DNA of 64,000 bases from an uncultured virus (IMG/VR IMGVR_UViG_2061766007_003336) (IMGVR_UViG_2061766007_003336); one strand, 5' to 3'; positions 157 to 51,153 are shown, numbered from the stretch's first letter. Numbers and translations: made by a program. The notes: generated from the sequence alone by a model not told the origin.

Positions 157-1485
157 ATGGAAAACGTCAACAACAACAAGATTTTTGCGGACGCACTCCG
201 CAAGGCTTTTATTGAAGAACGCGGCCTTACACAGGCAGCACTCACAAGGCTGCTGCAGCTGCCGCCTTCAACCGTCCACAACTGGCTGAGCGGGAGAGCG
301 GTGCCGAGGCCAAGGTTGTTCAACGACCTGAACATCCAGCTTGAGGGAGGTTGGCCTCCTGAAGTCTGGGAGGCTTACCACAGTCTCCAGAAGCCTAAGG
401 CCGCACCTGCACTGGAACCCAAGCCTGTGACAACGTTAGTTGTCAAGCTGGTAGAGGAAACCCCAGCGGTGCCAGCTGAACCTACAGCTGCTACGGAACC
501 TGCTGTAACACCGACGGCACCGGCCGGCAGACGCAGCTACGGCCGTCGCAAAATAGGCCCCTGGCTGCTCCAGGCGAGGGAGATGGCTAACAAGCCGCAG
601 GCCGAGGTTGCGGCTTATGTCGGCGTGATCCCTTCAATCATCTCCCAGTGGGAGCATGACAAGTGGGCTCCGTCTCAAGCGCAGCTTGAGAAATTGAAAG
701 AGCTGCTCGGGGTTGATTTCGACACGAGACCGCTGCAGTCGAAATATCAGCCCGAAGCTCAGGCTGCTGCGGACGTAAAAGAGGCAGTCATCAAGCCGCC
801 GCGCAGGCCTAGGCTTGAAACATTGCTCAAAGCCTGTCAGCCGGACTCAGGCAATGAGCCGATAAAGCTTAATCAGCAGGCTCTTCGGAACCTGGTGGAA
901 GTATGCCACGGCGTAGCTCAACTAGAAGAGCGCAAAGCGGCGCTCATTTCTCAGCTGCTCGAGCCGGAGAAAAAGCTCACGGCCAGGGAGCGTCTTGCTC
1001 ATCTTGCAGACCCGCAGGAAGGCCCGCTGCGTTCTATAAGTGCGGAATCGGGAATCCGATCCTTCGGCCAAATACTGACCACGTCGCTCGCGGGCTGGAG
1101 CAATGATGACAAAGTCAGTTTGACAGGATTAGCCCTGTCAAGGCTGACAGCTCTTGAGCAGGGCGAGACGCCGTCGGCTCAGGAGAGCATAAAACTGCTC
1201 CAGGATCTCGGTCTCGAAGCAGAAGACCTATTCCCCTGCGGACGCTTCGACGACGGATTCCCTGAGCTGCTCAGAGAAATTCTCGAAGAGGCTCAGGTGT
1301 CGACCGCGGAGTTCGCTAAAGTTACGGGTCTCAACCTTGGTCGGGTTGAGAACTGGCTGCAGGAAGAAACTGTTCCGAATAAGGCCGAAATAGGCATCAT
1401 ATCAGGAACCTGCGGTCTCAGCTACAACGCTGTCTGGAACTCAGTGTACAGACCGGATCAGCCGGTCTGGGAAAAAAGAAGGTAA
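157..1485 (+). CDS. Multi-domain XRE/Cro helix-turn-helix protein
   Basis: RBS aaggagg; repeated XRE-type HTHs (LTQAALTRLLQLPPSTVHNWLSGRAVP; PQAEVAAYVGVIPSIISQWEHDKWAP; STAEFAKVTGLNLGRVENWLQEETVP) with Pro/Ala-rich linkers. Confidence 0.85.
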   Translation: MENVNNNKIFADALRKAFIEERGLTQAALTRLLQLPPSTVHNWLSGRAVPRPRLFNDLNIQLEGGWPPEVWEAYHSLQKPKAAPALEPKPVTTLVVKLVEETPAVPAEPTAATEPAVTPTAPAGRRSYGRRKIGPWLLQAREMANKPQAEVAAYVGVIPSIISQWEHDKWAPSQAQLEKLKELLGVDFDTRPLQSKYQPEAQAAADVKEAVIKPPRRPRLETLLKACQPDSGNEPIKLNQQALRNLVEVCHGVAQLEERKAALISQLLEPEKKLTARERLAHLADPQEGPLRSISAESGIRSFGQILTTSLAGWSNDDKVSLTGLALSRLTALEQGETPSAQESIKLLQDLGLEAEDLFPCGRFDDGFPELLREILEEAQVSTAEFAKVTGLNLGRVENWLQEETVPNKAEIGIISGTCGLSYNAVWNSVYRPDQPVWEKRR

Positions 1486-1508
1486 AATTGAAAACTAAGG
1501 AGAGAAGA

Positions 1509-2342
1509 ATGGCAAAGATTTTTACACACGGCGTAAGAGCTCACGCCGATGAAATGTGGGCTTGCGGCGTTCTCATCGCTATGCGCCCCGATATTCAGTT
1601 TGATGAGATTATCAGAGACGCCAAGCGCGTCTCTGAAGCGACAGACGAGGACTTTGTCGTCGACTGCGGTGGGAAGCACGACGGCAAACATCTGTTTGAC
1701 CACCACCAGTTCGGCGGTGGTTATGACGTTCCCTGTGCACTCACCCTGGTGTGCAGAGCGTTTGCTCCGCACCTCTTGGATGATAAAGAATTCAAGGGGT
1801 GCTTTGAGCGTATTCGCGTACAGGATACGCAGGGGCTGCCGACTGCTGAAAAGGTATTCGGTAAATCAGACCCCTACGTGGAAGGGGAGCGGGTTCTCAT
1901 TCAGGAGTTTGAGGAAAACCCGCTCCTCGTCGCCGGCATCATTGCTCGGCGAGTCCTGAGGAAGAAGGCGGAGATCGACGAGTCTGAGAGGGCCAAAGAA
2001 TGGCTCTCAGCTCGTTACAGGGTAGAGATCGTCAACGACCTTACGGTCGTTGCCGTGGAAGAGAACCCGTTTAAAGCGGGGTTCAGCGTCGATGCCTTCA
2101 ATCTGGCGCTGAACGCGGTAGCCGACGCCGAGGTGGCCGACATCACCTACAGCTGGATTCCTGACGATCCTGCCGGAACAGGCCGGACGCTGTTCAGGAC
2201 GAAAGTCGGCACCGCAAAACGTGTCAACTTCGGTAAGGCGGAGCCTGCAAGCTTGGTGTTTTGTCACAGCACCGGTTTTTTGCTTGCTTTCCAGCCGGAA
2301 AACGAGCAGGAATACCGTAGACTTATTAAGGACTCTATTTAA
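1509..2342 (+). CDS. MYG1-family (DHH-type) nuclease/hydrolase
   Basis: Motifs THG..HADE, R(D), VVDCGG.HD, FDHHQ typical of MYG1; ATG at 1509 after aaggagag. Confidence 0.75.
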   Translation: MAKIFTHGVRAHADEMWACGVLIAMRPDIQFDEIIRDAKRVSEATDEDFVVDCGGKHDGKHLFDHHQFGGGYDVPCALTLVCRAFAPHLLDDKEFKGCFERIRVQDTQGLPTAEKVFGKSDPYVEGERVLIQEFEENPLLVAGIIARRVLRKKAEIDESERAKEWLSARYRVEIVNDLTVVAVEENPFKAGFSVDAFNLALNAVADAEVADITYSWIPDDPAGTGRTLFRTKVGTAKRVNFGKAEPASLVFCHSTGFLLAFQPENEQEYRRLIKDSI

Positions 2343-6153: not shown

Positions 6154-6531
6154 TCACTCATCCAGCGGCTTCAGCAGGTTTCTCAGAAACCCGGAAAACT
6201 TGCTGATGCTGTTGATAACATACACGTCACAGTACGGCTGAAGATTGGAGAAGCTTATCGTCTGGTTCTTGCTGAGCTTTCCCGAAGGCTTCTTCAGCTC
6301 AATGTACGCGGTATGCTTATCACAGCATACGTCTTCCCAGTGAACGATCAAATCAGGAAGGACAAGGTCAGTCTCTTTATCGGGTAGTTTGTATGCGTAG
6401 CAGCCGGAAAGGTTCAGCGTATCGAGCACAAGTTTTTCAAAATCACGCTCGGTCCACCCGTCCCATAGTGTCTTGTCGTCCAGACCATCGAACGTATGTA
6501 TGTAAGCTTTTATTTTTTCCGTATCAATCAC
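6154..6531 (-). CDS. VRR-NUC / PD-(D/E)xK nuclease
   Basis: LPDLIV...YIELKKPSGKLSKNQ is the VRR-NUC signature. Confidence 0.75.
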   Translation of the reverse strand: MIDTEKIKAYIHTFDGLDDKTLWDGWTERDFEKLVLDTLNLSGCYAYKLPDKETDLVLPDLIVHWEDVCCDKHTAYIELKKPSGKLSKNQTISFSNLQPYCDVYVINSISKFSGFLRNLLKPLDE

Positions 6532-7664
6532 GATATGTCTCCCGGTTCCCAGTAGTCATAGCCAGTCCCGAGCGCTGCGGTTCTCTGCGCTTCATATTTG
6601 GTAATGAATGCACGCACCGCGCTGCTGATAAGCTGTCGGTTCGATTCAGCGCTTTTGGCCGTTTTGGTAATTGATTTGTAAACTTTCGACTTGTAGTAGC
6701 CGGATATGTTTCCGGTAACTGCCGGGGCATGTGCAGTTTCCGCTCCTGCCAGACTGGAAATTACCGTTCCGCTGGAAGTGGTTGCCGCGGCAAGGCAGCC
6801 GTCAGCCACACCCTGAGAGTCAGTACCCCAGGTCAGTTCAGCTGATCCGAATACGTCCGGATTGGTGTCCTGGATGTCAGTCGGATTAACTATCCGGATA
6901 TAGACACTTTCATCCAGACGTTCAGTACTGCCGTCGGTATTGTCACTCTTAACTGTAAGGAACATATTTTTAGGCAGACTCAGTACTGCTCCGGTTTCGT
7001 CCGTGATCTCTTTAACGAATGCCGTGACGATGAATATTCTGGATGCGTTGGAGGAATCCGACGTAAACGACGTCACCCTGGTCTGCAGCGTAATTCTGAG
7101 CCTGGATCCTTCCAGGACGGCTTCATCATAACCTTCAGGATAGCGTAATGTGTCCATGCTGGTAGTAACCCTGACGCAGTCCCTGTATCCGTCGACCAGG
7201 GCTTTGATGGCTGTGTCGGTAGCGGTTCTGTCTGAGTTGATTCCCGGAACAAGATCCTTAACCACTTTAACAGGGGAGACAAACAGGCCTTCGGGGGAGC
7301 ACTCCGATACGGGTATTTCTGCATCATTCACCTGTTTCCAGGCCTCTTCGTCCCACGGTGCAGGGCCGCCGTCCGGAACCGGAGCCGCCACTGCAAGATC
7401 CTGCCAGTAAAGACTTGAGCCGTTCGGTTTTACCCTGTTGGTCAGATTAAAGTGCTCAGGGCATGCAACACCTATAAAGGTGCTCTCCGACACTTTTACT
7501 GTTTCACCGGCAGTGTCGGGCTTGCGGTACAGAAACAGCGCGTTGTCCATAAACACATTACCGCCTGAAATTCCCATAATGCTGTAAACCGAAGTGATTT
7601 TGTCCTCCCCGGGATTTACGAACGACCTGAATCCCGTTTTATACTGCAGCTTGGCTACCACCAT
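6528..7664 (-). CDS. Hypothetical (possibly structural) protein
   Basis: 378-aa ORF, RBS ggaggaag, own promoter. Confidence 0.75.
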   Translation of the reverse strand: MVVAKLQYKTGFRSFVNPGEDKITSVYSIMGISGGNVFMDNALFLYRKPDTAGETVKVSESTFIGVACPEHFNLTNRVKPNGSSLYWQDLAVAAPVPDGGPAPWDEEAWKQVNDAEIPVSECSPEGLFVSPVKVVKDLVPGINSDRTATDTAIKALVDGYRDCVRVTTSMDTLRYPEGYDEAVLEGSRLRITLQTRVTSFTSDSSNASRIFIVTAFVKEITDETGAVLSLPKNMFLTVKSDNTDGSTERLDESVYIRIVNPTDIQDTNPDVFGSAELTWGTDSQGVADGCLAAATTSSGTVISSLAGAETAHAPAVTGNISGYYKSKVYKSITKTAKSAESNRQLISSAVRAFITKYEAQRTAALGTGYDYWEPGDIS

Positions 7665-18144: not shown

Positions 18145-19110
18145 ATGAACGAAAACGAAAACATTGACATCAACAACGTTTTAACCGGCAGGGATCCTGA
18201 GCCGGACACGGGTCCGAGTGACCCGGATCTGAAGGAGATCAGATTTGACGGAGGAAGAACTCCAGGAGACTTAAACGGGGGATACCGTATTATTCCTCCC
18301 GCTCTGGTCAACGGGATAATTCAAGACGAGGCGAAAGGTCAGCTTAGGGGGCTGTATGACAACGTGGCCACGATGGGTTTCGCTAAAATCAATCTTCAGA
18401 CCAACAGATACGGAACCAGTTCAGCGTTCCCGGCAGACGGTCTGGTGTCTGGCAAGGTGCACGGGGACACGGCTGACAGGCTCAGAGTGTATCCGGGAGC
18501 TTACGTTATAGGGGGTCTCAATAAAGCCGTAACCTGCGCACCAAGATGGGCAGGGTCGGAAAAACGGATTCTTGTTCCGTATACTGCGAACATGTACAAT
18601 ATCTCGCATGTTACGTCTCCAGGACCTGATATGATGGCCAACATGCCGCATAGTCATCTCAGATGGGTAAAAGGGGCTTGCGTCAGGATATGTCTTGGCG
18701 GAATTACATCAGGCGGTCTGGCAGACTGGGCATTTAATGCAGACCTGATGCTTGGATATAATCAGGACCTGATGATGCCTTATCCCCCCGGATTTCTTCC
18801 TGTTTTTGTGCCACAGTATGGTGATACACCGCTAAGACGGCTTCAGGATGAGCAGCTCGGACGTCTTATGGCTGCGTTTATGCCGTGGAATCAAGAGTTC
18901 GACTCCCGTGACCCGCTGGCGCTGCAGCACCTGCTTGAGGCTGACAGTCCTGAGCTGGAAGAGGCTGTCCACGACTACGCTGCTGAGGGCCGGCTCGGGG
19001 ATTATTATGTGCAGGAGCAGTGGTATAACAAAGTCTATGACCTGTATATCAGGGTTCTGGCGGATACGTTTATCTATTTATATAGCCACTCCGAACCGCC
19101 GCGAAGATGA
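18145..19110 (+). CDS. Possible prokaryotic E2-like conjugating protein
   Basis: PHSH....G..RICLGG resembles the HPH..G.ICLG active-site pattern of prokaryotic E2 families; upstream of E1 and JAB genes. Confidence 0.45.
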   Translation: MNENENIDINNVLTGRDPEPDTGPSDPDLKEIRFDGGRTPGDLNGGYRIIPPALVNGIIQDEAKGQLRGLYDNVATMGFAKINLQTNRYGTSSAFPADGLVSGKVHGDTADRLRVYPGAYVIGGLNKAVTCAPRWAGSEKRILVPYTANMYNISHVTSPGPDMMANMPHSHLRWVKGACVRICLGGITSGGLADWAFNADLMLGYNQDLMMPYPPGFLPVFVPQYGDTPLRRLQDEQLGRLMAAFMPWNQEFDSRDPLALQHLLEADSPELEEAVHDYAAEGRLGDYYVQEQWYNKVYDLYIRVLADTFIYLYSHSEPPRR

Positions 19111-19123
19111 CATGGAGGATGAA

Positions 19124-19591
19124 ATGAAGAAGATTTATATCGGGTCCTGGTGGGATCTGGTCAGAAACATTCCGTCCTGGATCCAGACCAGGATGGTGCC
19201 AGTTGACTATGCCAAGCATAGATCAGGGCTGATGATCTCGGTGTCGGAGGTAAGGGAGCCTCTGGACTTTCCTGAGTTTACTACCATGCCTGACCGTCAG
19301 TTCACAAAACAGAATGTTATAGATTTCGTTACCATGGTAGGAGGCACCTCCTATAACTTCGTTGTTAACTGTAACGGTACGTGGTATGAGATCATCACGC
19401 CGTTTGTATTTTATAACGGTGAGCGTAAATATATCAGTGCTGATCTGCTCGAGGCACTGAACGCCTGGTTTCTGCTCTGCGGCTGCAACCTCTCGGTAAA
19501 TGAGCAAACGGCGTTTATAGGAAAGCTGTTCCCTAAACCGGAGAGCGGCAGAATTGATCCGGAAGATGCGAGATCATTCCTAGGGATCTAA
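19124..19591 (+). CDS. Hypothetical protein
   Basis: ATG at 19124 (MKKIYIGSWW) after ggagga. Confidence 0.75.
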   Translation: MKKIYIGSWWDLVRNIPSWIQTRMVPVDYAKHRSGLMISVSEVREPLDFPEFTTMPDRQFTKQNVIDFVTMVGGTSYNFVVNCNGTWYEIITPFVFYNGERKYISADLLEALNAWFLLCGCNLSVNEQTAFIGKLFPKPESGRIDPEDARSFLGI

Positions 19592-19605
19592 AAGTGGTAT
19601 AAGTA
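19590..19605 (+). promoter_or_regulatory. Plus-strand phage promoter-like motif, copy 4
   Basis: aaaagtggtataagta. Confidence 0.6.
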
Positions 19606-19670
19606 AGTGTGGAGGCAAGGCGCGGTTTGCCAAGCCTCATTTAAAAACCCTATATATATGGAGGAATGCC

Positions 19671-20384
19671 ATGGACAAACGTCTGGCAAAAGAGCAGCTC
19701 GACTCTTTCAAAAGCGAGCATTCAGTATTGGCACAGTGGCTCGGAACCCTTCCCTGCGAAAAACAGGTGATCGTTCTCCGGGATCTTCTTCAGACTGCAG
19801 AGATGAAGAGGAAATACGCTGAACTCTGCAAAATCAAGTTTACGGCTGAAACCTATACTCAGTCGTGGTTCCCTAAACCTGAGTCCTCGATTGAAGAGAT
19901 TGCCGCAGACCTCAATACATTCTACGGCACTACCGAGCAGATTCCTGTAGAGATCAGAGAGCTCCTGATCGAGAGCAAGCTGATGAAACCGGAACCCGCT
20001 GAAGAAGAAGAGGAAGAGGTCACACCCGACGATCTCCTCAGCGATGATGCAGCTGGTGATTGTATGTGTGCGGAACGCACGTGTGCGGCGTCAGTCACGG
20101 GCATTATTGTTCCATATCTCTTTACTGCCGGTAACCGCAGCTTCAAGGTTGAATCTGCCAACAGGGAGGAGTTCGTTTCCAGATTGACAAATCTGGTCAT
20201 GGAACTCAAGCGCGACGGGTATGCGGACGATATGCTCCCGTCACAGTTCAGGCACGTCAGCCCTGAGTTTCTGAAAATTGTTGCTGGCACGATCTATGAT
20301 CAGAGACGCAGCGAACTTCAGGCAGACCCCAATGCAGGTCCCACACACGAATACGCCGCTAAGAAATCCACAGGCGGCTGTTAG
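19671..20384 (+). CDS. Protein ending in GG-C; candidate ubiquitin-like modifier
   Basis: C-terminus ...YAAKKSTGGC*; acidic linker separates two domains; directly upstream of E1. Confidence 0.5.
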   Translation: MDKRLAKEQLDSFKSEHSVLAQWLGTLPCEKQVIVLRDLLQTAEMKRKYAELCKIKFTAETYTQSWFPKPESSIEEIAADLNTFYGTTEQIPVEIRELLIESKLMKPEPAEEEEEEVTPDDLLSDDAAGDCMCAERTCAASVTGIIVPYLFTAGNRSFKVESANREEFVSRLTNLVMELKRDGYADDMLPSQFRHVSPEFLKIVAGTIYDQRRSELQADPNAGPTHEYAAKKSTGGC

Positions 20385-20407
20385 TCAAGTCTGACTCCTC
20401 ATAAGGA

Positions 20408-20468
20408 CAGGGCGGAGTTGCTCTTACCGGGCTCAGGCCCGGAAGAGAGGCTCTGCCCTGATTTTTTT
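20408..20468 (+). terminator. Long hairpin/terminator between the GG-tailed gene and E1
   Basis: cagggcggag...ccggg-ctcagg-cccgg...ctctgccctg then attttttt. Confidence 0.7.
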
Positions 20469-20488
20469 AGAATCATAAGGAGGAAAAA

Positions 20489-21379
20489 ATGCTGAGAATA
20501 GTCCAAGTCGGTGCCGGAGGGACCGGCAGCTGGTTTGCCAGGACGCTGGGTCAAATAATTTGTCAGTACCATGCCCAGTACGGGGACGGCATCCTGCTTG
20601 ATCCGGTAGAATGGCTGATTGCCGACTATGATAAAATTGAGAAGAGGAACCTTCAGCGCCAGCCGTTTCTTGGGGGGATCGGCGTCAATAAGGCTAAGTT
20701 CCTTACAGGTCAGGTGCTTCAGCCTCTTTTTGACATCAACGAAGTAAAAGCCAGGCTGCGGAGGGCGGATGACATGGTTCGCGGTAACGCTCTCGAGCAG
20801 CTGCTCGGGGCAAATCTGAGCAGCAATGACGGTAATCCGGCTCTAGTCCAGTTAGTTGTCAGTTGCGTTGACAATACGTATTCGCGACAGCTTATGGAAG
20901 AGTGTCTGGCAGCAGTAAGACCGAAGCGGACATGGTATCTGAACATGGGCGTCAGCCCTGACGGAGACTGGTTCGTAGAGCGTGTCGCCGCTGACCTGCT
21001 CGTTCCGACACAGTATGACAGTCTTACATACCCGGACGCTATGCTTAGTTGCGGGCAGCGTGCTGAAACAGGTCCTATGCCGCAGACGGTCTACAGTAAC
21101 ATTATGGCAGGCAGTATGGCGGCGCATTCAATCGCTATGCTGGCAGCCGATATACTTAGCGGCAAGGAGCCTAAGAAATTCGTTGGTGTTACTGGAAAGG
21201 ACTTCCAGGCGCAGGAGATTACGGAAGAAGTTTATTTACAATGCCACGCTGCAGACCTGGTAGCCTCGGCATTAAAAACGGAGGAGGAGAAAGATGTTCA
21301 AAATCAAGACGACGATCCCTGTCCCAGTCCAGATGAACTTGGCTGGGGAATCGGCGAAGGAGAAAATGATAATGAATAA
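20489..21379 (+). CDS. ThiF/E1-like adenylyltransferase
   Basis: VGAGGTGS, DYDKIEKRNLQRQ, NKA, SCVDN..SR, and C-terminal SC...Q...N typical of E1s in prokaryotic Ub-like/PRTRC operons. Confidence 0.9.
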   Translation: MLRIVQVGAGGTGSWFARTLGQIICQYHAQYGDGILLDPVEWLIADYDKIEKRNLQRQPFLGGIGVNKAKFLTGQVLQPLFDINEVKARLRRADDMVRGNALEQLLGANLSSNDGNPALVQLVVSCVDNTYSRQLMEECLAAVRPKRTWYLNMGVSPDGDWFVERVAADLLVPTQYDSLTYPDAMLSCGQRAETGPMPQTVYSNIMAGSMAAHSIAMLAADILSGKEPKKFVGVTGKDFQAQEITEEVYLQCHAADLVASALKTEEEKDVQNQDDDPCPSPDELGWGIGEGENDNE

Positions 21380-22991
21380 GAAAGCGTGTTTACTAATTGA
21401 GGAAGGCCCGCTTTACGACATTATGATGCTGAACGCTGCAGGCTGTGACAGTTTAACAATTAACGGGGTTGAGTTTACTGCCGCCGGTAATGATGAAACA
21501 GTTAGTCCTGATGACCTGCTGGAGCCTGCAATACTGCACCCGGCATTAGTCGCGCTGGCCAACAAGGGCCCACTCACTGTGTGGGTTCATAAAAAGATCC
21601 CCACTTCGATTCTTCTCGAAGTGCGGAAAGTCCTTCAGTTGATATATGAAAAGTACCATACTGAAGGTGCTGTCCTCGTAGTGTATGATACTACGACAGG
21701 CACATTTGAAACAATCGTTCCTAAGCAGACTGACAGCACCACGCTCTGCAATATCGAGCCTGAAGACAGTCAGTGCTGGCTCTCAGATACGAAACGGATC
21801 GCTGCAAACTTCCACTCACACCCGTTCGGGGGACACACCAAATTCCTGTCCCCTACAGATCACGTGCAGGCGTTTGCGATTCCGGGAGCGCCGATTGCTT
21901 CATTTAATTTTGATCCCAAGCCGAGGATCGGGAATCTGTACAACTTCGGCGAAATGGAATGTGAGTTCGGCAGTATTCCGCTCCAGGACCCGAAGCAGTT
22001 CACCGAGGGCTATCCTGAAATGTTCGAACTGACTCAGGCTGACAGAGACAAATGGCAGCCGCTGATTGATGCGAGAGTCAACGGCGGCAGACCTGCCGTC
22101 CTGCCGGCTAAGACCGCAGGTAAAGCATCTTCAAAGAAAGACGATAAACCGACGTGGACTCCTTGGAAAGATGATGACGATGACCCGCTGGCCTGGTCTC
22201 TGCAGGATTATGAAGCAGCAAGCCTTGCCGAGCACATGGGGGACGTAAAAAATCCGTACTCAGGTCTGCTCCACAAAGGCGGGGATATGTTCAAGTTCCC
22301 GTTGAGCGATGATGAGACAGATGTCCCTGAAGAGAGTCCATGGTCACTCGACAGTCTCTCTACGGAAGCCGGGATCGATGAGTGTAGCGCTCCTGACTGG
22401 GTAAAGTTCATATCCGAGTTAGCTGATGAAACCGGATTCGACTGGCAGGAAATGAATGCCACACTCAACAGGGCAATCGAGAAGCTCGCGGATAAGTTCT
22501 TCCCTGATCACTATCCGATCCCTCTGGATGCCTGGACACCTGAAGCCATCAAACTGCTCAGAGAAGTAACGATGGACTCCAGGGAACTCTCGAAGGCTGA
22601 GTGGAAGCTTATCGAGAAAAACTTTATGGAAGACATCGAAAGCAACGCTGCCTTCGGCGCCGACGAGTACTGGATTCCGTGTCTGGTTGCGCTGTATGCA
22701 ATCAGTTTCTGCAAAATCAGCACGAAGGCGAAAAGTATCTGGGAAATGTTTTATCGGAAATATATCTCCCTCTTCCTTAAAGATTCAGGGGAGGAGTTCT
22801 TCCGGAAGATGCCGGTACCGATACCGAAGCATCCGAAACAGCTTCCTAAACCGGCTGAAGCTGAGCAGGTTGAAGCTGAGAAGACACAACCGGCTGCGGA
22901 AACAGGTCCGCAGTCTGTAAAACCAGAAACTAGTAACAACGATAACATTGAAGAAGGCATGGATCCCGTGCCGGGAGTACAGGATGATTAG
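21372..22991 (+). CDS. JAB/MPN+ (JAMM) peptidase with long acidic C-terminal extension
   Basis: HTEG...PKQ...HSHP......SPTD JAMM motif. Confidence 0.85.
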   Translation: MNKKACLLIEEGPLYDIMMLNAAGCDSLTINGVEFTAAGNDETVSPDDLLEPAILHPALVALANKGPLTVWVHKKIPTSILLEVRKVLQLIYEKYHTEGAVLVVYDTTTGTFETIVPKQTDSTTLCNIEPEDSQCWLSDTKRIAANFHSHPFGGHTKFLSPTDHVQAFAIPGAPIASFNFDPKPRIGNLYNFGEMECEFGSIPLQDPKQFTEGYPEMFELTQADRDKWQPLIDARVNGGRPAVLPAKTAGKASSKKDDKPTWTPWKDDDDDPLAWSLQDYEAASLAEHMGDVKNPYSGLLHKGGDMFKFPLSDDETDVPEESPWSLDSLSTEAGIDECSAPDWVKFISELADETGFDWQEMNATLNRAIEKLADKFFPDHYPIPLDAWTPEAIKLLREVTMDSRELSKAEWKLIEKNFMEDIESNAAFGADEYWIPCLVALYAISFCKISTKAKSIWEMFYRKYISLFLKDSGEEFFRKMPVPIPKHPKQLPKPAEAEQVEAEKTQPAAETGPQSVKPETSNNDNIEEGMDPVPGVQDD

Positions 22992-23198
22992 AATGTCGGC
23001 AAAACCGTTCGGCAGCCCGCTACAGACTGCTGCCTGATGGTCTGTAAATGTCTGTGCCATAAGGTAGGAGGACAGTAAAATGAAACTGTTCTGCTACTGG
23101 CCAAAACCATTGCGCATTCTGCTGAAGGGGGCACGGAATGCGTTAATACTCCAAGTGCTCCTGCGGCAGTGCCGGTCAACACTGCCAAAGGCCTGTTA

Positions 23199-23507
23199 AT
23201 GGAGATTTGGGGGTTCGCTTCCCCGTCTCTGATAGATTTAGGCGTTATGTATCTAATGCCCTGGTTTGCTATCTCCTTGACGTATATGTCGCCGTTAATG
23301 CTTATCATTGAGGTCAGTCTTACCATAGCAGCATATGTTTCAGGATCGCGCAGGCAAGCAGTATGCTTTGCCGTTCTGCGTCAGATGTACCATATGTTTG
23401 TGTTTGGGGTAGGCTGGGTAATAATGGTGGAAATATTACTCGTAGGATTTGTCCTTATGTCAAGGATCGTTGGCCTGGGATTTTCACAAACAAAAAGCGG
23501 GGACTAA
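23199..23507 (+). CDS. Small multi-TM membrane protein
   Basis: Hydrophobic throughout; TAATG-coupled to a 39-codon ORF at 23080-23199 that has an aggagg RBS. Confidence 0.5.
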   Translation: MEIWGFASPSLIDLGVMYLMPWFAISLTYMSPLMLIIEVSLTIAAYVSGSRRQAVCFAVLRQMYHMFVFGVGWVIMVEILLVGFVLMSRIVGLGFSQTKSGD

Positions 23508-23518
23508 GTCCCCGCTTT
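23492..23518. terminator. Bidirectional terminator
   Basis: aaaaagcggggac-taa-gtccccgcttt between convergent genes. Confidence 0.8.
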
Positions 23519-23545: not shown

Positions 23546-24502
23546 TTATGCGCCAGTGCTCTGTTCGCTGTCAGACGTAGAGGAAGCACCGAGGTAGTCG
23601 CTGAGGATCATAGAAAACAGACTGCCGTTGCCAGCACTCAAAACTCCGTTAGCGGATATGCCGCAGATATTGAGACAATCCTTATCACTGAAAGTAACAC
23701 GTTTTGCGAATGATGACGTAAACCCGCTGGTGCCTGCGTAGGTAACCGGGGTCTGCAGTGCTGCACTCAATTCAGCTCCCATGAGGGATTGGAGGAGACA
23801 GCCTTCGTAATACGTAATCTTTAGCGGAACACGATCCTTGGTTGCAGTAACTGCCATGATACCGAACGGGATTTTGTATAAATCCGATTTCGCAAAGTTG
23901 CCCCATGGAGCATTTCGGTCAGGAGCGACCGCCCACGGGTAAACAGACTCGTTTCCTATGTAGGAGCCATCGGATCCGTCTCCTGCCGGGTCCTTAGGGA
24001 AAAATCCGGCATATGTATTATCGTTCAGCATCCAGAAATACAGACGTTTAAGCATATTCCACCTCTGGTTCTCACCCGCAGCTGCACCGTTCTGGTCCAA
24101 ATACGAGCCGCTGCTTTTCTGGTTAAGCGCCCACGGGTCTTTGGTTACATACGCCGACGCAGTCACGTAAAGCTGCTTCTGAGTAACACTGCTGGAGGCC
24201 GGGGCTACAACAGTGTTAGCTGTACCCAGTGAATACAGTAACGGGTCGGGGTTTTTGTTTTCTGAGTCTACAAACTGGGTCGAGAAGAGCAGCGGGCAAA
24301 GTTTACTGAGTGCCTGTCCTGCTTCTACACTACCTGCCGATATCCCCGTCTGAACCGATTCGGTTAAGTCCTGGAGTTTATCAAACTTTGGCGGCCCTGA
24401 AAGAAGGAAAAATGTATCTGACGCGCTGTTGCACAGCGAGAGGGCAATCTGCTCTCTTACGCTGATATCGAAAAGATCGGTAAAAAAGTTATTACCTGCC
24501 AT
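23546..24502 (-). CDS. Putative tail tube protein
   Basis: Immediately after the sheath-like gene; C-terminal ITYYEGCLLQS beta pattern. Confidence 0.45.
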   Translation of the reverse strand: MAGNNFFTDLFDISVREQIALSLCNSASDTFFLLSGPPKFDKLQDLTESVQTGISAGSVEAGQALSKLCPLLFSTQFVDSENKNPDPLLYSLGTANTVVAPASSSVTQKQLYVTASAYVTKDPWALNQKSSGSYLDQNGAAAGENQRWNMLKRLYFWMLNDNTYAGFFPKDPAGDGSDGSYIGNESVYPWAVAPDRNAPWGNFAKSDLYKIPFGIMAVTATKDRVPLKITYYEGCLLQSLMGAELSAALQTPVTYAGTSGFTSSFAKRVTFSDKDCLNICGISANGVLSAGNGSLFSMILSDYLGASSTSDSEQSTGA

Positions 24503-24514: not shown

Positions 24515-27500
24515 TTATTCTACATAAACTGTATTGTCAATGTATCTAGCCGGATCCTGCGAACTGATATGATGGTCAATAAGGATATGCGATCCGTCGA
24601 AGCTGATCGAAGCGTCCGATACCTTCTTGAGCAGAGTTCCGAGAAGATTGTAACGCGTTTCCGTGTATTTCTTCTTCAGGATGACGAGCGATGTGCCAAG
24701 TCCGCTGAGCAGTTCCGGGGTGCCGGTGTTCATCGGGCCTTTCCAGCGTTTGGTTACGTTGTACACGTCCTTACCGTACATGAGTACCGGAGTGATCTTG
24801 CTAAGAAGACCTCTGTCGGAATCTCCGTACATCGGATAGCCTACCGTGCAGTCGGTCTCACAGTACGGAAGTCCGCCTACCTCACTGTTGATCATGCAGT
24901 AGCCTGCGTCGAGAAGTGTCTCGAGGTCATCGTGGGAAAACTCCCTGAGACCGAGAACTTCGCCGATTCCCGGAAGCGAGAATGAAACAAGCGTGAGCGG
25001 CATGTGCGGCTGAGTCGCAAGTTTGGTTCCAAAGATAAGACCTGGGGTAGCATAGTCAGGCATCTTCGTGTAAGACGATGCCGTAACATACGCTGATGTA
25101 GTACTGAGGATCTTCGCAGTGCTGTCACCAAGCATGTTGTCCCTGAGAACTTTGCCTTCGTATGTAACGTCCCTGGTAAGAACTGTGACGCAGGCCATGT
25201 TGGTCGAGGTCTGGTCAGCAGCAAGTCTTGCAGCCTTTTCCATCGGAGTATAAACACGGTAGATCTCGAAGTCGGAAGTATAGTTCTGATACCTTGCATC
25301 AAAACTGCATTCGGTAAGACTCCAGCGTTCATCCGGACCCATATCAAGACTTTCGACGGTGAGTGTAATCGGATCAGCGAGGTCATCCAACGGATTCGGA
25401 TCAGTTATAAATTTAAACTTACCAGCGAACTCATCGTTGGCATCTTCCCACGTGCCTTCCCACACATCCTGGCTGATGATTGTATTGTTCGGGAGTTTTC
25501 TCTGAGTGTAATTGAGTCTGACTCTCAGAGTGTTGGTTCTGAGCTTTCTGCCTCCGTTTTCCGAGGCCGTATAAACTGCCTGGAACGGGTCATATATACC
25601 CTGACTCTCTGTACCGACAAGAGGTTTCTGAACCGCTTCAATGAAATATGACGGGATATACGCATCGTCGAACTCGATGAGATCATCACTGACGCTCTTA
25701 ACGGTAAGTACTGTGTCAGGATTGTTTTTATCCTTAACGAGGTCGCCAGGGATAACTTTCAACTCAGATGAGAAACCCGCGCCGTTCTTCTTGAGGGCGT
25801 ACGGATAATAGTTATCGGCGTCAATACGAAGAACAGCCGAGATGAAGTCTGTCCTGGTTACCGAATCTTTTATCGGCTTGAACTGGTAGCCGATTCTGAA
25901 ACGGGACTGCTCTTTCTGGTTCTCATGGTCGATCCAGTTGTAGAACGCATCCTCCGGGCCGTCGTCGCTGACGTACCATACATGAAAAATGTTCCTGTAT
26001 TTCTCAAGGGTGTCAGTACCGTTCTTGAGATCCGTGCAGGCGAGAACATACATCTCTGATGTCGTAAGCTGCTTAACAAGGCCGTAAGCGAAGCCAAGCT
26101 GGTTACGCGGATCCATCTGTCCGATAAGATCCTCAATACTCGTTCCGGTTCCGTCTGTGGAATAGTTGGGCGTAAAGTAAAGTCCGTTCTCACCGGTCAT
26201 TACATTACTTGTGACCATTTCCTCATATTCAAGTCTGAAGTAGCCGCATACAAAGTTGCTGCCGAGATCAGTGGCGCAGGGGAGCTCAGGTCTGTCACCA
26301 GGCTCGGTATCATACGTCATCAGGTACTGCTCTTCAGGGTTGTATTCCCTTCCTGTGAAGGTAAGTGTTGCAGGCTCTATTTTGAGAGCTCCGGTATTCG
26401 GATTGATACCGAGGTTGATGCGCATCGGATTGTCGTCCGATGTTCTGCACGCACACGCTGCGATGTCAATGAACGGCCGGTAGTCTGACGAATCAAACGC
26501 CGGATAACCCGTGGTGACAACTCGTGACGCATGGTCGATACCGTTTTCCTTAAGTACCGTTATAACGCCTCCGCGGTAGGACTTAAGTGTGCTGAGACTG
26601 TTGGTGGCGTCCTTGAAAGCCTTCTTGACTTTGAGCAGTGTCGTACCTTCATCCGCATCGTCTTCAAGCGAAGCTATGAAATCTTCGTAGCCTTCCTCAC
26701 CTTCGGACGGAACGTCCTCCGGGGACATGTCTGCCGGAAGCAGGTACGTTCCGCTTTCTGTAATAAGGAACTCCGAGTCAGTAGCGGCAAGAAGCTCAAG
26801 TACAGTATCGTCGTCATCATCGTCGTCGGGATCGCCGCCCGGATAGTAGCTGGAAACGTCTTTCGGGCCGAGATAGAACATATCCTTCGTGCTGATGATA
26901 CCGTTGAGAAGATCAAAATCTTTGTCATCCTCTATGTACGACGCGCATTCATAACTGATTGATGTGATCTTGTCGATTACGTAACCAGCAGTCGTGACGA
27001 GTTTGGACTCAGTATCAAATTTAAACGTATAGTCCGACGCAGATGCTTTATAAGCCAGCTTGTTGCTTGTTTTGAAGTATTCAGGGAGACTTTCCGCGTT
27101 TTCCACATACAGAATGCCTCTTACTCTCGGATCATCGGAGCTGTAGTCTACCAGCTTGACGTTAATGGATGTGTCCCCATGTTTCAGTACAAGTGCTACC
27201 TCGAGAGTTCCCGGCAGCATAGCTTTGGACTGGGAAGCGTCATCAAACATCGGAGCGGTGGAAACAACTGACAGGGTTTTGCCGTCGTCACTGATTTTCA
27301 GGAAAGCTGTCGGTTTTACCGAAGACGTGCTGCTGTAGGTCACTGTTGAATTACTGCCGTTAACAATACGGAAATGTGCTTCGTCATACGGGATCGCACG
27401 GTAGCCTTTCTTGTAGAAGTTGACGTATTTGAACAGTCTGCTGTCTCCGCCCTTGAAGTAGGTCCTGACAGTAGGGATGTTTACCGTGTTGCCTTTGGAG

Positions 27501-27757
27501 AACTTGGGGTATGCCCACGCTCCGTCGGTGCCTTCGGGGTTGATCCTTCTCGTTCCGTCTTCGTATGTCAGCCATTCGTCTGTACTCGGCGTGCAGTCAT
27601 CATCTTTAGGAAGGAACCATCCGTGACTCTTGAGGTCGTGGAGACGGGTGGCCTTACCCATGATGCAGCCGTAATAGGTTTCCAGTGCGGGGCTGACAGC
27701 CGAAGTACCGAAAACGTATTTGACTTGGGTGTATGGTAATACCATGGCATACCTCAC
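24515..27757 (-). CDS. Contractile tail sheath protein
   Basis: 1080 aa; C-terminal PHMPLT...FSHDDLETLLDAG..I...DCT...K...GPMN pattern of sheath proteins; own promoter. Confidence 0.65.
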   Translation of the reverse strand: MRYAMVLPYTQVKYVFGTSAVSPALETYYGCIMGKATRLHDLKSHGWFLPKDDDCTPSTDEWLTYEDGTRRINPEGTDGAWAYPKFSKGNTVNIPTVRTYFKGGDSRLFKYVNFYKKGYRAIPYDEAHFRIVNGSNSTVTYSSTSSVKPTAFLKISDDGKTLSVVSTAPMFDDASQSKAMLPGTLEVALVLKHGDTSINVKLVDYSSDDPRVRGILYVENAESLPEYFKTSNKLAYKASASDYTFKFDTESKLVTTAGYVIDKITSISYECASYIEDDKDFDLLNGIISTKDMFYLGPKDVSSYYPGGDPDDDDDDDTVLELLAATDSEFLITESGTYLLPADMSPEDVPSEGEEGYEDFIASLEDDADEGTTLLKVKKAFKDATNSLSTLKSYRGGVITVLKENGIDHASRVVTTGYPAFDSSDYRPFIDIAACACRTSDDNPMRINLGINPNTGALKIEPATLTFTGREYNPEEQYLMTYDTEPGDRPELPCATDLGSNFVCGYFRLEYEEMVTSNVMTGENGLYFTPNYSTDGTGTSIEDLIGQMDPRNQLGFAYGLVKQLTTSEMYVLACTDLKNGTDTLEKYRNIFHVWYVSDDGPEDAFYNWIDHENQKEQSRFRIGYQFKPIKDSVTRTDFISAVLRIDADNYYPYALKKNGAGFSSELKVIPGDLVKDKNNPDTVLTVKSVSDDLIEFDDAYIPSYFIEAVQKPLVGTESQGIYDPFQAVYTASENGGRKLRTNTLRVRLNYTQRKLPNNTIISQDVWEGTWEDANDEFAGKFKFITDPNPLDDLADPITLTVESLDMGPDERWSLTECSFDARYQNYTSDFEIYRVYTPMEKAARLAADQTSTNMACVTVLTRDVTYEGKVLRDNMLGDSTAKILSTTSAYVTASSYTKMPDYATPGLIFGTKLATQPHMPLTLVSFSLPGIGEVLGLREFSHDDLETLLDAGYCMINSEVGGLPYCETDCTVGYPMYGDSDRGLLSKITPVLMYGKDVYNVTKRWKGPMNTGTPELLSGLGTSLVILKKKYTETRYNLLGTLLKKVSDASISFDGSHILIDHHISSQDPARYIDNTVYVE

Positions 27758-44939: not shown

Positions 44940-47900
44940 TTAGTACTTAGGTCCGTTTTCCTTGAAAGGTCTGCCTACCAGCCACGGTGTGACCGGTGAT
45001 GTTGATTCTGCAGGGCTGACCTTGCCCTCGGCAACCGCTTCGGTGATTGTGCGTTTGATATACTTCTGCGCCAGGTTGCTGACCCAGTCATCTTCAAGCA
45101 TACCTGAAGTGTAGAAACTCTTTACTACAGGTTTGACTCTTACGCCTTCGGGGAATACGAGTATCGTTTTCGGACCTTCCTTTTTGAAATAGTCATCGAT
45201 ATCAGACTGCGTCAGTCTGGTCCCTGCCGAATATTCCCCGACTTCTTCTGCCAGACTCATGCCGGGGAGCAGCTCCGACGGTTTGACGGGAACACCTTTC
45301 TTCTTCCCAAGGTCGAGCAGCGTATTGTAAGAGATTGTGTCACCAGGAAGATACGAATCGAAAGCGCTCATTACTTCAACGTAATTTACAGCACCTTTCG
45401 CTATGACGGCCAGAGTCCTGTCGTCCACACTGCCTTCCGTTACCAGCTTGAGATCCTCAATCAGAGCATCACGCCCTGCCTTGACTCCCTTAAGTCTCGT
45501 CATATCCGTGTAAGGAAGCACTCCTTCAGTGAGTTTGTCACCGAGTTTGACCTTGTCCCCTACCTTCACGAGAATGTCACTGTCGGGATGAACGCGGTAT
45601 TTTTTACCTGATTCCATGTATATCATAGCGGGTGCACCCTTTCTGATCTCAATCTCGCTTACGGTGTCGTCCCTTTCTGACAGCGTAGCGACGCCTGCTT
45701 TGCTGGAGTCACTGCTGAATACGTTGGTGAGTCTCTCGAGACCGCCGCCGCCTACATCCCTGGTGATGTCACGTCCGCCGTGCTTGGAGTCAAGCGCTTT
45801 CTGTGAAATAGGCTCATTGGCGCCCTGCGCTGCTCTGAGTCCTACGTTGGTTCCTATATCAAGAAATTTCCAGTAGGAATCGGTGCCGTAACATTTCTGG
45901 CAGATACCTTCTTTGGCCGCGCATGTCTTCGGCGACCTTACAAGGATCTTCCTGTGGGGCAGCTTGCTCTGGTTGTCAGAGGTAATTACTGATCCCTTCT
46001 TGATTCCCGGAACCGTTTCCTGGATGACTTTCCCCAGAACTTCGTCAGAGTTCCAGTCAACTTCAACTCCGGCGTCTGTTCCGCAGTCTTCCATCGTGAT
46101 GACCTCCTTCATTACGTTGTAGGTCATCAGCTTCAGCATTGCACCGGGCGTAGCTACGTTGAGGGCTGTGGCGATAGCGTCCTTCTTGACCTTAATGTTC
46201 TGCTGCCAGAAGTCATACATATTGAGACCTTCACCGTACGAACCTTTTGTCAGAACTGCAGTCTGAACGGGCTTATCCGGATCATAGGAAAGAATTGGAC
46301 TTACTACGATACTCGCCAGCTGCATGTCGGAACCTTTAGCGCCTGACTCGACATTAAGTCTCAGGTCTCCGGGATGGTTCCTTGCGGCATCCTTTGCTTC
46401 GTTCTGTGCTGACTGGAGCAGCTGCGCCCTTTTCTTGAGGTCTTTCTCGTTTTCGATAGCTCGGGAGTACTTATTCAGAATTTTGTCCCTCTCCTTCGTC
46501 ATCGGCTTAATGTCCTCGACACCTACCGTGCTTCCTATCTCTGTAGCATACTTCGTTCCGAGATGCTGTATCTTGTCGTAGATCTCAGTGATCCTGTCAG
46601 GGGCATTCCTCGCTGCGGTAGCAAACATCTTCTTTGCCGCCTTCTTGTCGCAGGGAACAGGAACATCAGCTGCTCCTTTAAGGATAGCGTTCATATCGGC
46701 CCTGAACTTTTTCGGATCCTTCTTCGACATCTGGTAAAGACCGAGAATGGTTTCGGAAAGGAACCCTATCGACAATCCGCCTATCTTAACGTCGTTGAAC
46801 ACATTCTTTGACAGAAGCATTTTATCCAGTGATCTTGATACTTTGGCATTCGACGGAACGTGGATCTGGATCGCATCGCCGTCGAAGTCTGCGTTCAAAG
46901 GCTGGGTAGCGGTCAGATTAAGATGAATACTGGTGTCAGGAATGATCTTCGGATGTGCTGCAAGCATACCGAATCTGTGCAGTGTGGGCGCACGGTTATA
47001 CAGCACGTTGGTCTCTGCCGTAACATCCTCAAGCGCCTTCCTTGCCTGAGGCGTATGTTCGAGCATCATCTGCGAAGCTTCAAGCGGCGGTACACCGATC
47101 TGCTTGAGCTTGTTCATCACGTGAGGTTCGAACATCTTCCATGCCATAACCTCGGGAATGCCTATCTCGTCCATTGACAGACTTGCATCCGCAACAATTC
47201 TGGCACGGCCGGACAGATCCTGGTTCTTCTTAACCAGTGTACTCTGTATGTAGCCGTTCTTCGGCGAACCCACACCGCTGAGATAGGGAAGGACTCCCCG
47301 TGAACCTTTCTTTCTAAGCTGAATATTTGCCGTTTCTTCTGTGCCTACCAGCGCACCGACGTTGTTGAGCAGCACTTTCTTGGCGTCCGGAGCGAAAGCG
47401 GTGTCCTTCACACTTTTCAGACCTTCATTGGCCAGCATTATATCCTTGTAGAACAGGTTTACATCAGAGACCTGTACGCCTCCGTCCTGGAGTTTGGTGA
47501 TCGGCCGCATGATTGGCGGCGGCACCGGTATTTCCGTAATAATATAATCACTGAGTTTGTCTCCTCTCTTCTGAGTATTCTTAAGGAACCTGAGCTCCTT
47601 GATCTCGTTATTCGACAGGTCATTCTTCTTTGACTTGGCAGTCAGTTCCTTGACCCTGCCGTCGATGTCGAAAGCATCAAGTTCTTTTTTCATCTGCTTC
47701 GTCGTGCTGTTGGCCTGCCACGATTTCATTTCAGCTTCCGATTTTCCGAGAACGAGTCTCAAATGGCCTTCGACCATCGGAGAAATGATCCCGTCCTCAA
47801 GTTTCAGCTTCGACCAGAGTTTTCCGTTCAGGCCGCCGGTGGTGTTGGGGTCAAACAGCCCTTTCTTCATAGGCTCGAGATCTTTTGAGTTAAGAAGTGC

Positions 47901-50900: not shown

Positions 50901-50987
50901 TATCTTCATCTCTTCGATTCCTTCCTTTACGCTCTGCTCCACATCATCGGGCTTGCAGCCCCATCCGACTTTTGAAAGTTCAGGCAT
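44940..50987 (-). CDS. rpoBC: Single-chain fused beta-beta' DNA-directed RNA polymerase (~2015 aa)
   Basis: beta motifs (ISPLGMGG, LALGKN..AFMPY.G.NSEDS, GDKLTG.YGNKG, RINPGQ) then beta' motifs (IPVPPP.MRP, DLSGR, NRAPTLHR, NADFDGD at 46875-46895, EDCGT, RSP.TC....ICQKCYG, AAQ..NEP.SQ); ATG at 50987 after gggag. Confidence 0.95.
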   Translation of the reverse strand: MPELSKVGWGCKPDDVEQSVKEGIEEMKIPLTKKADGPYITFENVEFKRDSSADSTMAIKEAVTFQKSILTKVYGDVVEYDGGRKKVLERHLQIGQLPQLLEGRNTFMVTGSEYNLINQPRRKSSVYVYTTNGGQGGAVADFNLAKGRNFDLSMDDASGLVVMNIGNGSVAIRPMLESLGFTRKDLVDCTDEQFAKDHWDAVDAQQTQINNFRKLYGKLYEFKQEDVRTIPLEDLRKGCKEYFEQTAVDPKTTKYLFNDEHKKIDKAFMKEILKKFYEVNAGEDEGIDPDDLYYQKLYPPNMLFKDRLQKVTNEIANGVRHKIKLGHAYSKIFNNIFSKYLVSLVNSSDLSRLDPQYNPIGMYVASTKISPLGMGGISDVNAVSRAKRGVHSSYFGIIDPTASAQGMNVGIQLNMTDDVKIDKSGEIYLPLSTPGGEVKNIPLADTYDKKVLVPEVASDKNRYVMYKGKMQKLKKGEHYDYKLPHGTSSLFNTVNQLVPFPQATQGNRSFMTARQVTQAVPLKYGETPLVEPVDDKGVSTYRKMRKDLESLLPMESPYSGTVTKVGDGKIELKDENGKKQVIQYHEYLPFATNTGVNQTPLVKPGDKIRKGQMVVQDGYTTDDGKLALGKNLKLAFMPYYGENSEDSVVISESCAEKLTSLHYHTFSSKINDNFILDKQRFMNMFGSKYQNLVDFDKYDANGVIKKGETVKYHEPVMLIIERRTPDDRIAQLGKISNKIVVDLVDGSQLYETVTDGKVVDVASKKGFVSVTVVSEDRAVVGDKLTGMYGNKGTIGKIIPDDQMIRDESGQPIDVIHSSIVVTTRINPGQVYENALGKIVASGKKKEHYKVPVAKNPTADNLNDFTVKEMQKYGIKDKEILFDPTTGKNIERPIAVGYTYFMKLLKGDKDLSARGVGPSYSYAGTPSKGGHEGAKGIGAAEFGALVAHNARAFLTDAGNIKAQKNDEYWKGMEMGIPVPTKTTSGTWEQTKGLLTAAGGYVTQDNESISIMPVTDKITDRLAQHREIQTPALLNSKDLEPMKKGLFDPNTTGGLNGKLWSKLKLEDGIISPMVEGHLRLVLGKSEAEMKSWQANSTTKQMKKELDAFDIDGRVKELTAKSKKNDLSNNEIKELRFLKNTQKRGDKLSDYIITEIPVPPPIMRPITKLQDGGVQVSDVNLFYKDIMLANEGLKSVKDTAFAPDAKKVLLNNVGALVGTEETANIQLRKKGSRGVLPYLSGVGSPKNGYIQSTLVKKNQDLSGRARIVADASLSMDEIGIPEVMAWKMFEPHVMNKLKQIGVPPLEASQMMLEHTPQARKALEDVTAETNVLYNRAPTLHRFGMLAAHPKIIPDTSIHLNLTATQPLNADFDGDAIQIHVPSNAKVSRSLDKMLLSKNVFNDVKIGGLSIGFLSETILGLYQMSKKDPKKFRADMNAILKGAADVPVPCDKKAAKKMFATAARNAPDRITEIYDKIQHLGTKYATEIGSTVGVEDIKPMTKERDKILNKYSRAIENEKDLKKRAQLLQSAQNEAKDAARNHPGDLRLNVESGAKGSDMQLASIVVSPILSYDPDKPVQTAVLTKGSYGEGLNMYDFWQQNIKVKKDAIATALNVATPGAMLKLMTYNVMKEVITMEDCGTDAGVEVDWNSDEVLGKVIQETVPGIKKGSVITSDNQSKLPHRKILVRSPKTCAAKEGICQKCYGTDSYWKFLDIGTNVGLRAAQGANEPISQKALDSKHGGRDITRDVGGGGLERLTNVFSSDSSKAGVATLSERDDTVSEIEIRKGAPAMIYMESGKKYRVHPDSDILVKVGDKVKLGDKLTEGVLPYTDMTRLKGVKAGRDALIEDLKLVTEGSVDDRTLAVIAKGAVNYVEVMSAFDSYLPGDTISYNTLLDLGKKKGVPVKPSELLPGMSLAEEVGEYSAGTRLTQSDIDDYFKKEGPKTILVFPEGVRVKPVVKSFYTSGMLEDDWVSNLAQKYIKRTITEAVAEGKVSPAESTSPVTPWLVGRPFKENGPKY

Positions 50988-51076
50988 AGTAATCTCCCGC
51001 CAACAGTTAACACCCGGCCAATATACTATTAAAAGCAAAAAAAATAAAGAATGCGCTGAGGCGTTTTTCCCGTATG

Positions 51077-51092: not shown

Positions 51093-51153
51093 GGTGAGAC
51101 AGGAGTTTCGGCTGAACCCTGTCAAGTTGATCAACTTAATTTTGGAGGAGAAC

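Follow-up and report, generated by a model that had tools for sequence, protein, structure and literature searches.

A phage-borne gene cassette that may encode a strongly diverged PRTRC-type protein-activation system

Organization of the locus

The DNA analyzed here, referred to as the window, is a stretch of 64,000 nucleotides (nt) from an uncultured virus (IMG/VR IMGVR_UViG_2061766007_003336). It contains a plus-strand run of five open reading frames (ORFs), designated A, B, C, E1 and JAB, with minus-strand genes on either side (Table 1). E1 and JAB are a ThiF-family adenylating enzyme and a JAMM metallopeptidase with intact catalytic motifs, protein C carries a conserved glycine at its tail, and the same arrangement recurs in other, diverged lineages. 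We consider the chances about even that the cassette encodes a PRTRC-type protein-activation system that is strongly diverged and resides in the phage. An original prediction, made from the sequence alone, had placed a phage-encoded ubiquitin-like conjugation cluster on a co-oriented plus-strand island at this position. The island is present, with ORFs A, C, E1 and JAB in place (JAB as its longest ORF, which opens at 21294 and ends at 22991), together with ORF B, which had not been listed. From its probable start, JAB overlaps the E1 stop by 14 nt.

Table 1. Features of the cassette and its downstream border (positions counted from the first letter of the window; aa, amino acids)
Feature	Position	Strand	Description
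Protein A	18145..19110	+	321 aa; ORF with a strong AGGAGG Shine-Dalgarno site; candidate thioester carrier (E2 analogue)
Protein B	19112..19591	+	155-159 aa, depending on whether translation begins at 19112 or 19124; alpha+beta protein with poor conservation
Protein C	19671..20384	+	237 aa; proposed E1 substrate/modifier
ThiF-family E1-like adenylating enzyme	20489..21379	+	296 aa; Pfam PF00899
JAB/JAMM metallopeptidase	21366..22991	+	541 aa, counted from an ATG at 21366 that follows a GGAG
Small hydrophobic ORF	23199..23507	+	~102 aa; 3' of JAB; cassette membership uncertain
G+C-rich hairpin	23496..23516		between convergent plus- and minus-strand genes; A/T runs on both sides; likely bidirectional terminator

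Acidic low-complexity sequence recurs within the cassette, in the linker of C and in the C-terminal tails of E1 and JAB (window 19980-20100, 20384-21379 and 22800-22991). The lengths of these acidic stretches differ among lineages.

The adenylating enzyme and the metallopeptidase

The E1 protein scores above threshold against Pfam ThiF (PF00899; 36.2 bits, gathering cut-off 28.1), and the same family is recognized in 19 of 20 database homologues. When the window E1 was aligned with these 20 homologues (36-98% identity), the GAGGTGS, DxDxxxxRNLxRQ and CVDN motifs, K68 and C188 (in 'LSCG') proved invariant in all 21 sequences. The definitions of these motifs (Gly-rich loop, Arg-finger block, Lys and Mg-binding Asp) come from work on MoeB and ThiF. 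Residues G8, G10, G11, G13, D46, D48, N54, R57, K68 and D128 (in CVDN) are kept throughout the family and in 30 or 31 of 31 PRTRC-like relatives. Cys188 (codon 21050-21052), the candidate catalytic cysteine, is retained in all 52 sequences examined (21 family members and 31 PRTRC-like E1s). Judged by family and motifs, E1 is a real ThiF-family adenylating enzyme, and the earlier call of a ThiF/E1 with an SCG cysteine holds.

The E1 architecture is a single adenylation domain followed by an acidic tail. Its top NCBIfam match is PRTRC_ThiF (E=5.3e-9, 35.8 bits), and the ThiF and MoeB equivalogs give E-values of only 4.6e-4 to 0.057. Against solved structures, the E1 profile matches UBA5 best (E=0.0026), along with other ThiF-type enzymes.

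The JAB core spans approximately residues 75-240. Its metal-binding motif, E100 (21663-21665) and H150-S-H152 (21813-21821), is invariant in seven of seven JAB sequences, the S..D element is present in all six that reach that region, and the motif residues align with the same motif in AMSH. A profile of the JAB family matches the JAMM core of AMSH/STAMBP in the Protein Data Bank (PDB; E=4.9e-4) and, weakly, BilC (E=0.69). In an hhalign comparison, JAB aligns with the PRTRC_A-like JABs of other large-phage cassettes at 97.4% probability (E=1.5e-11, 186 columns), and those JABs themselves match Prok-JAB and PRTRC_A (PRTRC_A E=1.1e-12). The window JAB has no match at E<=0.1 in Pfam, including JAB and Prok-JAB; Prok-JAB is matched weakly by three of the seven family members (best E=0.033), and no JAB match was found in GenBank phages. 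Approximately 300 poorly conserved acidic and helical residues lie C-terminal to the core. Both the JAMM peptidase and this extra region were correctly anticipated in the original prediction.

Proteins C, A and B

Protein C had been described as ending in GGC, and its tail indeed reads ...AAKKSTGG-C. Gly236 (codon 20376-20378) is invariant in nine of nine C-family members and follows a Lys-rich stretch. The residues after it are variable: two of the nine proteins have none, three have one, three have two and one has three. An invariant glycine followed by zero to three variable residues is the pattern of a precursor that is trimmed to a terminal glycine, as is a ubiquitin-like protein (Ubl) precursor. 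The AF2 model of C (predicted local distance difference test score (pLDDT) 73) comprises an N-terminal helical domain, a disordered acidic linker, a C-terminal domain and a flexible tail, with the C-terminal domain (residues 147-227) modelled as beta-beta-alpha-alpha-beta. Fold searches with C gave a top Z of 4.2, to unrelated chains, with PB1 at 3.8 and Elongin B and EccD1-Ubl at 2.3-2.9. Comparison of C by hhalign with the PRTRC-like small proteins and with the L007-type large proteins described below detected no relation. The earlier identification of the glycine-tailed protein as a Ubl is unproven, because C has 237 aa in two domains, and a beta-grasp fold could not be demonstrated in it.

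Relatives of protein A are rare, with only 16 found among 1.84 billion representatives. In an alignment of 24 family sequences, N149, C183, G185, N198, D200, Q234 and D235 are invariant and no histidine is. A single invariant cysteine with no invariant histidine to accompany it would suit a thioester carrier and speaks against a hydrolase of the Cys-His type. Of the features on which a resemblance of A to an E2 active site had been proposed, the cysteine (codon 18691-18693) is conserved in 24 of 24 sequences, but the histidines of the accompanying 'PHSH' are not. A hypothesis-driven hhalign comparison of A with 26 PRTRC_B/Prok-E2_D proteins gave P=0.016 at a probability of 2.8% and paired 'P..N' and 'FN.DL' blocks. 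Three observations therefore point to an E2-like protein, namely the invariant Asn...Cys, the lack of an invariant His and this alignment to PRTRC_B, and we regard an E2-like identity for A as roughly a coin toss. PDB profile searches, NCBIfam, PADLOC and the ESM Atlas returned nothing for A. Its AF2 model (pLDDT 73, predicted template modelling score 0.82) has low confidence near the cysteine. A regular expression of three motifs caught only A-family proteins in 241,054 residues; it also missed the E2_D proteins, whose P-x-N spacing differs by one residue, and the argument from motif identity between A and E2_D was dropped for that reason.

Protein B has no conserved Cys or His. Its homologues are detectable by hidden Markov model in two of the six other lineages; the remaining four have an ORF of 169-181 aa at the same position with a weak shared motif. 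A role as an adaptor is possible.

Conservation and distribution

A metagenome scan yielded eight loci that represent six lineages (L010 and L017, from one assembly; L011; L012, equal to L013; L014; L015; and L016). All six have members of the A, C, E1 and JAB families in the same order, at 23-60% identity, and this recurrence of gene order indicates that the cassette is more than a chance arrangement. Each of the five loci that continue past JAB has homologues of the two genes downstream (23546-24502 and 24515-27757), convergent with the cassette, and the genes upstream differ between loci. All reading frames are intact in an independent 53-kb DNA contig (run X5, ~96% identical).

Outside these lineages, close relatives were not recovered. 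Single-sequence searches of IMG/VR found no close E1 relative and profile searches found only distant ones, and IMG/VR returned no close relative for the 23546-24502 family. Among 185,579 reference genomes, the E1 relatives were only distant, PRTRC-like ones, and 24515-27757 had none. GenBank phages gave no DNA match to the window. The sequencing runs that hold the sequence are labelled as bovine or other animal gut metagenomes. Contig pieces from three RNA-library runs (two studies) fall on C, E1 and JAB and cover parts of the cluster only, the uncovered parts being uninformative; these constitute weak evidence of transcription because DNA carry-over is possible.

Relation to known systems

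The closest named relatives of the cassette are the PRTRC systems of plasmids and integrative and conjugative elements (ICEs). In NCBIfam, these are represented by PRTRC_ThiF (TIGR03736), PRTRC_A (TIGR03735), which is the JAB, and PRTRC_B (TIGR03737), which corresponds to Pfam Prok-E2_D. The window resembles them in that its E1 has PRTRC_ThiF as best named match, with the conserved 'SC' cysteine present in 31 of 31 PRTRC-like E1s, and in that its JAB shares homology with those of the PRTRC_A-like group. A further parallel lies in small proteins encoded at PRTRC-like loci, in which a conserved Gly at the C-terminal end is followed by zero to two residues. The window differs in several respects: its scores are all under the curated cut-offs, it sits in a phage, E1 precedes JAB rather than following the PRTRC order of E2-JAB-E1, neither PRTRC_B nor PRTRC_C is detectable in the cassette, and the glycine-tailed protein is a 237-aa protein with an additional helical domain. 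PRTRC_C, D, E and F families were not detected in the window with Pfam or NCBIfam, and a Pfam scan of 48 window ORFs found no ParB-related family; the window covers only part of the phage genome.

The nearest cellular E1 relatives occur in bacterial PRTRC-like loci (L029-L056, from metagenome-assembled reference genomes, mostly Pyrinomonadaceae/Acidobacteriota) that hold PRTRC_B, PRTRC_A, PRTRC_ThiF and two tandem paralogous proteins of 80-88 aa. The twin proteins end in ...KRAQHKG (plus zero to two variable residues) and ...P.GF, which suggests that such loci have two glycine-tailed modifiers per system.

A second group of relatives is phage-borne. Three IMG/VR contigs of 93-152 kb (L001, L006 and L007) have the order small ORF (~100 aa), 520-585 aa protein without a known family, Prok-E2_D, JAB (614-681 aa) and ThiF. 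Of the three E2_D proteins, two have a G-x terminus (…FGK, …GGN). Like the window, these cassettes have a JAB of the same subfamily with a long C-terminal extension. Unlike the window, they have a Pfam-detectable Prok-E2_D protein (in L007, 27.0 bits, cut-off 25), the ThiF proteins are 494-825 aa long compared to 296 aa, and no homologue of A, B or C is recognizable. The window E1 is distant from the large-phage E1s, at 27-36% identity over the N-terminus. In addition, Acinetobacter jumbo phage vB_AbaM_ME3 has ThiF and 'PRTRC system protein A' among its non-structural genes. The ties of the window E1 and JAB to both PRTRC-like and large-phage loci suggest that the cassette is a far-diverged, rearranged member with new partner proteins.

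Likeness to Bil, to cyclic-oligonucleotide-based anti-phage signaling systems (CBASS) with Cap2/Cap3 and to PRTRC had all been proposed. PRTRC stands as the closest relative, but the likeness to Bil (BilA-D) and type II CBASS is functional only: in both, E1 activates a C-terminal Gly, a Cys carrier follows and a JAB trims or reverses, as we propose for the window. BilC is only a weak profile match of the window JAB, and PADLOC models returned no family at E<=1 for any of the five proteins. The window E1 also departs from Bil and CBASS in being a single 296-aa domain, and the cassette is encoded by a virus rather than by a host. Conjugation in CBASS is not restricted to small beta-grasp Ubls. 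Bil and Bub architectures are outlined in Ye et al. 2024 (PMC11601596), and bacterial E1/E2/JAB systems act in anti-phage defense according to the summary accounts of PMC10097602, PMC10557695 and PMC11601596.

Among phages, the lambda/T1 pair TAPI (a Ubl) and TAPK similarly combines a JAB with a protein that has a domain ending in a conserved Gly. The parts of Iyer et al. 2006 (PMC1779556) that we draw on describe bacterial E1/E2/JAB operon types and this Ubl-JAB pair, and they mention no phage E1. The lambda/T1 phages differ from the window in lacking an E1 and a Cys carrier, and the TAPK JAB is fused to NlpC/P60. No sequence relation of the cassette to TAPI/TAPK was detected (no PHROG match).

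Discussion

We propose that the cassette carries out a short series of reactions centered on protein C. The JAMM peptidase would trim the zero to three residues that follow the conserved C-terminal Gly of C, and the ThiF-type E1 would then adenylate this Gly with ATP and hold C on Cys188 as a thioester. Protein A, which has an invariant Asn...Cys and lacks a catalytic His, would accept C as an E2-like carrier, and B may assist as an adaptor. C would finally be passed to a lysine of a target protein, and the same JAB could reverse the linkage. The families and intact catalytic motifs of the enzymes, the glycine tail of C and the shared gene order are established here; the order of these steps, the carrier role of A, a protein conjugate as product and the target are what we infer. 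The cassette is fixed in this phage lineage and has two large genes as constant neighbors, which makes a variable component of host defense a less likely target than a phage protein or a fixed factor of the host. The original proposal of a conjugation system run by the phage itself holds insofar as a self-contained set of E1, JAB and glycine-tailed protein is conserved in diverged relatives, but its E2 fold found no support and its Ubl identity is unproven.

Several results weigh against a PRTRC-type conjugation system. The E2 fold expected of A found no backing: Foldseek searches of the PDB and BFVD gave nothing at E<=0.001 and no UBC chain, VIA-align against 48,161 chains reached a best Z of 2.6 with helical fragments only and again no UBC chain, a second VIA-align run against 314 chains gave nothing at Z>=2, and none of the 24 A-family members has a Pfam Prok-E2 match. 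With the PDB profile search likewise negative, and hhalign negative to marginal, the E2 fold predicted for 18145-19110 was not recovered by any method. Comparison of A with three phage E2_D proteins by hhalign gave a probability of 0.2%. In the alignment with PRTRC_B/E2_D, the A cysteine is left unaligned, behind an insert of ~30 residues in A, and the Asn-Cys spacing is 34 residues in A compared to ~7-9 in PRTRC_B. For C, Ubl and beta-grasp chains (Z 2.3-2.9) fall below unrelated rows (Z 3.5-4.2), and the protein has 237 aa with an additional N-terminal domain. The E1 score falls short of the curated PRTRC_ThiF cut-off of 144.75 bits, and JAB has no direct NCBIfam match at E<=1, PRTRC_A included, which puts it below the curated PRTRC cut-offs. 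Neither a target nor an E3 or acceptor was identified. We know of no established function for PRTRC itself, and searches at the level of listings and abstracts found no literature on a phage-encoded system of E1, JAB and Gly tail or on PRTRC function.

One alternative is that C is a sulfur carrier. JAB would trim C, E1 would adenylate it, and a C-terminal thiocarboxylate would donate sulfur to modification of a phage metabolite or nucleic acid, with the A cysteine as a persulfide relay. QbsE/QbsD/QbsC, CysO/Mec+ and ThiS/ThiF are sulfur-carrier systems of this thiocarboxylate type, and the cassette has a comparable stand-alone, single-domain E1, a JAB, and a carrier with Gly-Gly and then extra residues (GG-C), as in QbsE; a protein A with one invariant Cys, no His and no E2 fold found would suit a relay. 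We nevertheless consider this alternative unlikely. The 48 window ORFs scanned include no rhodanese, cysteine desulfurase or sulfur-using enzyme family and, as had been stated originally, no ThiS/MoaD, thiamine or molybdopterin genes. C is a two-domain protein of 237 aa without a demonstrable beta-grasp, and the affinities of E1 and JAB are to PRTRC-type cassettes with a Prok-E2_D protein rather than to the ThiF/MoeB equivalogs. In a further alternative, E1 adenylates the end of C but no transfer to other proteins follows, so that C is nucleotidylated, amidated, cyclized or self-linked and A and B have unrelated roles. MccB adenylates the C terminus of MccA in such a way, the E1 profile matches MccB weakly (E=0.72-0.78) together with other non-Ubl adenylating ThiF enzymes, and neither an E2 nor a Ubl fold has been demonstrated. 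Against this stand the conserved Cys188 and the paired JAB with its full JAMM site, both typical features of chemistry through thioesters and isopeptides. In addition, the end of C on which E1 would act is a Gly, as in Ubl systems, and A, with its invariant Cys, accompanies the set in six of six lineages; we find a non-conjugative modification quite improbable.

The remaining alternatives concern the purpose of the cassette more than its chemistry. The cassette could be a counter-defense system directed at the host, in which JAB strips Bil- or CBASS-type conjugates and in which E1, A and C act on a defense or proteostasis factor of the host, by modifying or titrating it, with no part in morphogenesis. 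The anti-phage roles of bacterial E1/E2/JAB proteins in the sources cited above make such an encounter plausible, and the long, variable C-terminal region of JAB could recruit substrates. Anti-defense genes have a patchy distribution. The cassette, in contrast, is fixed and syntenic in six diverged lineages, always by the same two genes; it has no PADLOC match and supplies its own glycine-tailed substrate, and we view counter-defense as rather unlikely. Alternatively, the cassette may do what PRTRC does on plasmids and ICEs, perhaps establishment or maintenance of the replicon, with the phage genome as the replicon served and without a link to the virion. PRTRC_ThiF as best named E1 match, the homology of JAB to PRTRC_A-like phage JABs and the non-structural setting of the ME3 genes favor this role. 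Without a detectable ParB-related, PRTRC_C, D, E or F family, and with a different gene order and different partners, we give it little credence; it concerns biological role only and is compatible with the chemistry we propose.

Returning to conjugation, a fuller version of the proposal can be formulated, which we put forward tentatively and consider less likely than not. A lineage of large rumen phages would depend on a complete pathway of its own, in which a minimal PRTRC-derived E1 and a Cys carrier of unseen fold attach the 24-kDa, non-beta-grasp protein C through its Gly to a phage protein (possibly of the virion) or a host protein, with JAB maturing C and reversing the linkage. Such a pathway, if real, would be the first known case of a bacterial virus with enzyme-driven, ubiquitin-style covalent tagging among its core functions. 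Prokaryotic ubiquitin-style conjugation has so far been a weapon of the host against phages (CBASS Cap2/Cap3 and Bil) or, on plasmids, uncharacterized (PRTRC). The cassette would place such chemistry on the side of the virus, as a conserved core module rather than an accessory, and would provide a tractable model, in which the substrate is obvious, for E1/JAB pairs of the PRTRC type. A and C, which have no recognizable fold, could bear on the evolution of E2-like carriers and of non-Ubl modifiers.

Genome context

The window is phage-like, with a fused RNA polymerase that has PHROG matches, a trio of NAD-salvage genes and regulators with multiple helix-turn-helix (HTH) domains. The original prediction had placed the cassette within a virion module. 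This setting was not confirmed: searches with Pfam, PHROGs, NCBIfam and PDB profiles, and tblastn against phages, matched no flanking ORF to a structural family.

The small ORF downstream of JAB has a counterpart with 33% identity at the equivalent place in L010. In the run X5 contig, the region of this ORF is replaced, with 338 unrelated letters standing in for 23157-23488, so that the position where the cassette ends is a variable one. The hairpin beyond it was found by reading the sequence and is absent from the output of a consensus terminator scan; consensus scans of the window for promoters and terminators gave background levels only.

The polymerase is a single ORF of 2,153 aa (window 44940-51401, minus strand) that joins an RNA polymerase beta-like part (Rpb2_6, E=4.8e-40) to a beta'-like part (Rpb1 domains). 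The nearest deposited phages for this protein are Vibrio phages D181, D148 and D69 and Salmonella phage Arash, at only 27-28% identity. The NAD-salvage trio (window 52011-55226, plus strand) comprises an isochorismatase-family (nicotinamidase-like) protein, a ribose-phosphate pyrophosphokinase-like protein and a nicotinamide phosphoribosyltransferase of 601 aa (PHROG 448, E=2e-140). Tandem Cro/C1-type HTH domains occur at 157-1485 (plus strand; three in 442 aa) and at 55764-56519 (plus strand; two to three in 251 aa). A MYG1-like (UPF0160) protein is encoded at 1488-2342 (plus strand), 16 kb from the cassette, and in L011 a MYG1-like homologue that is 34% identical (6446-7276) lies ~430 nt upstream of gene A.

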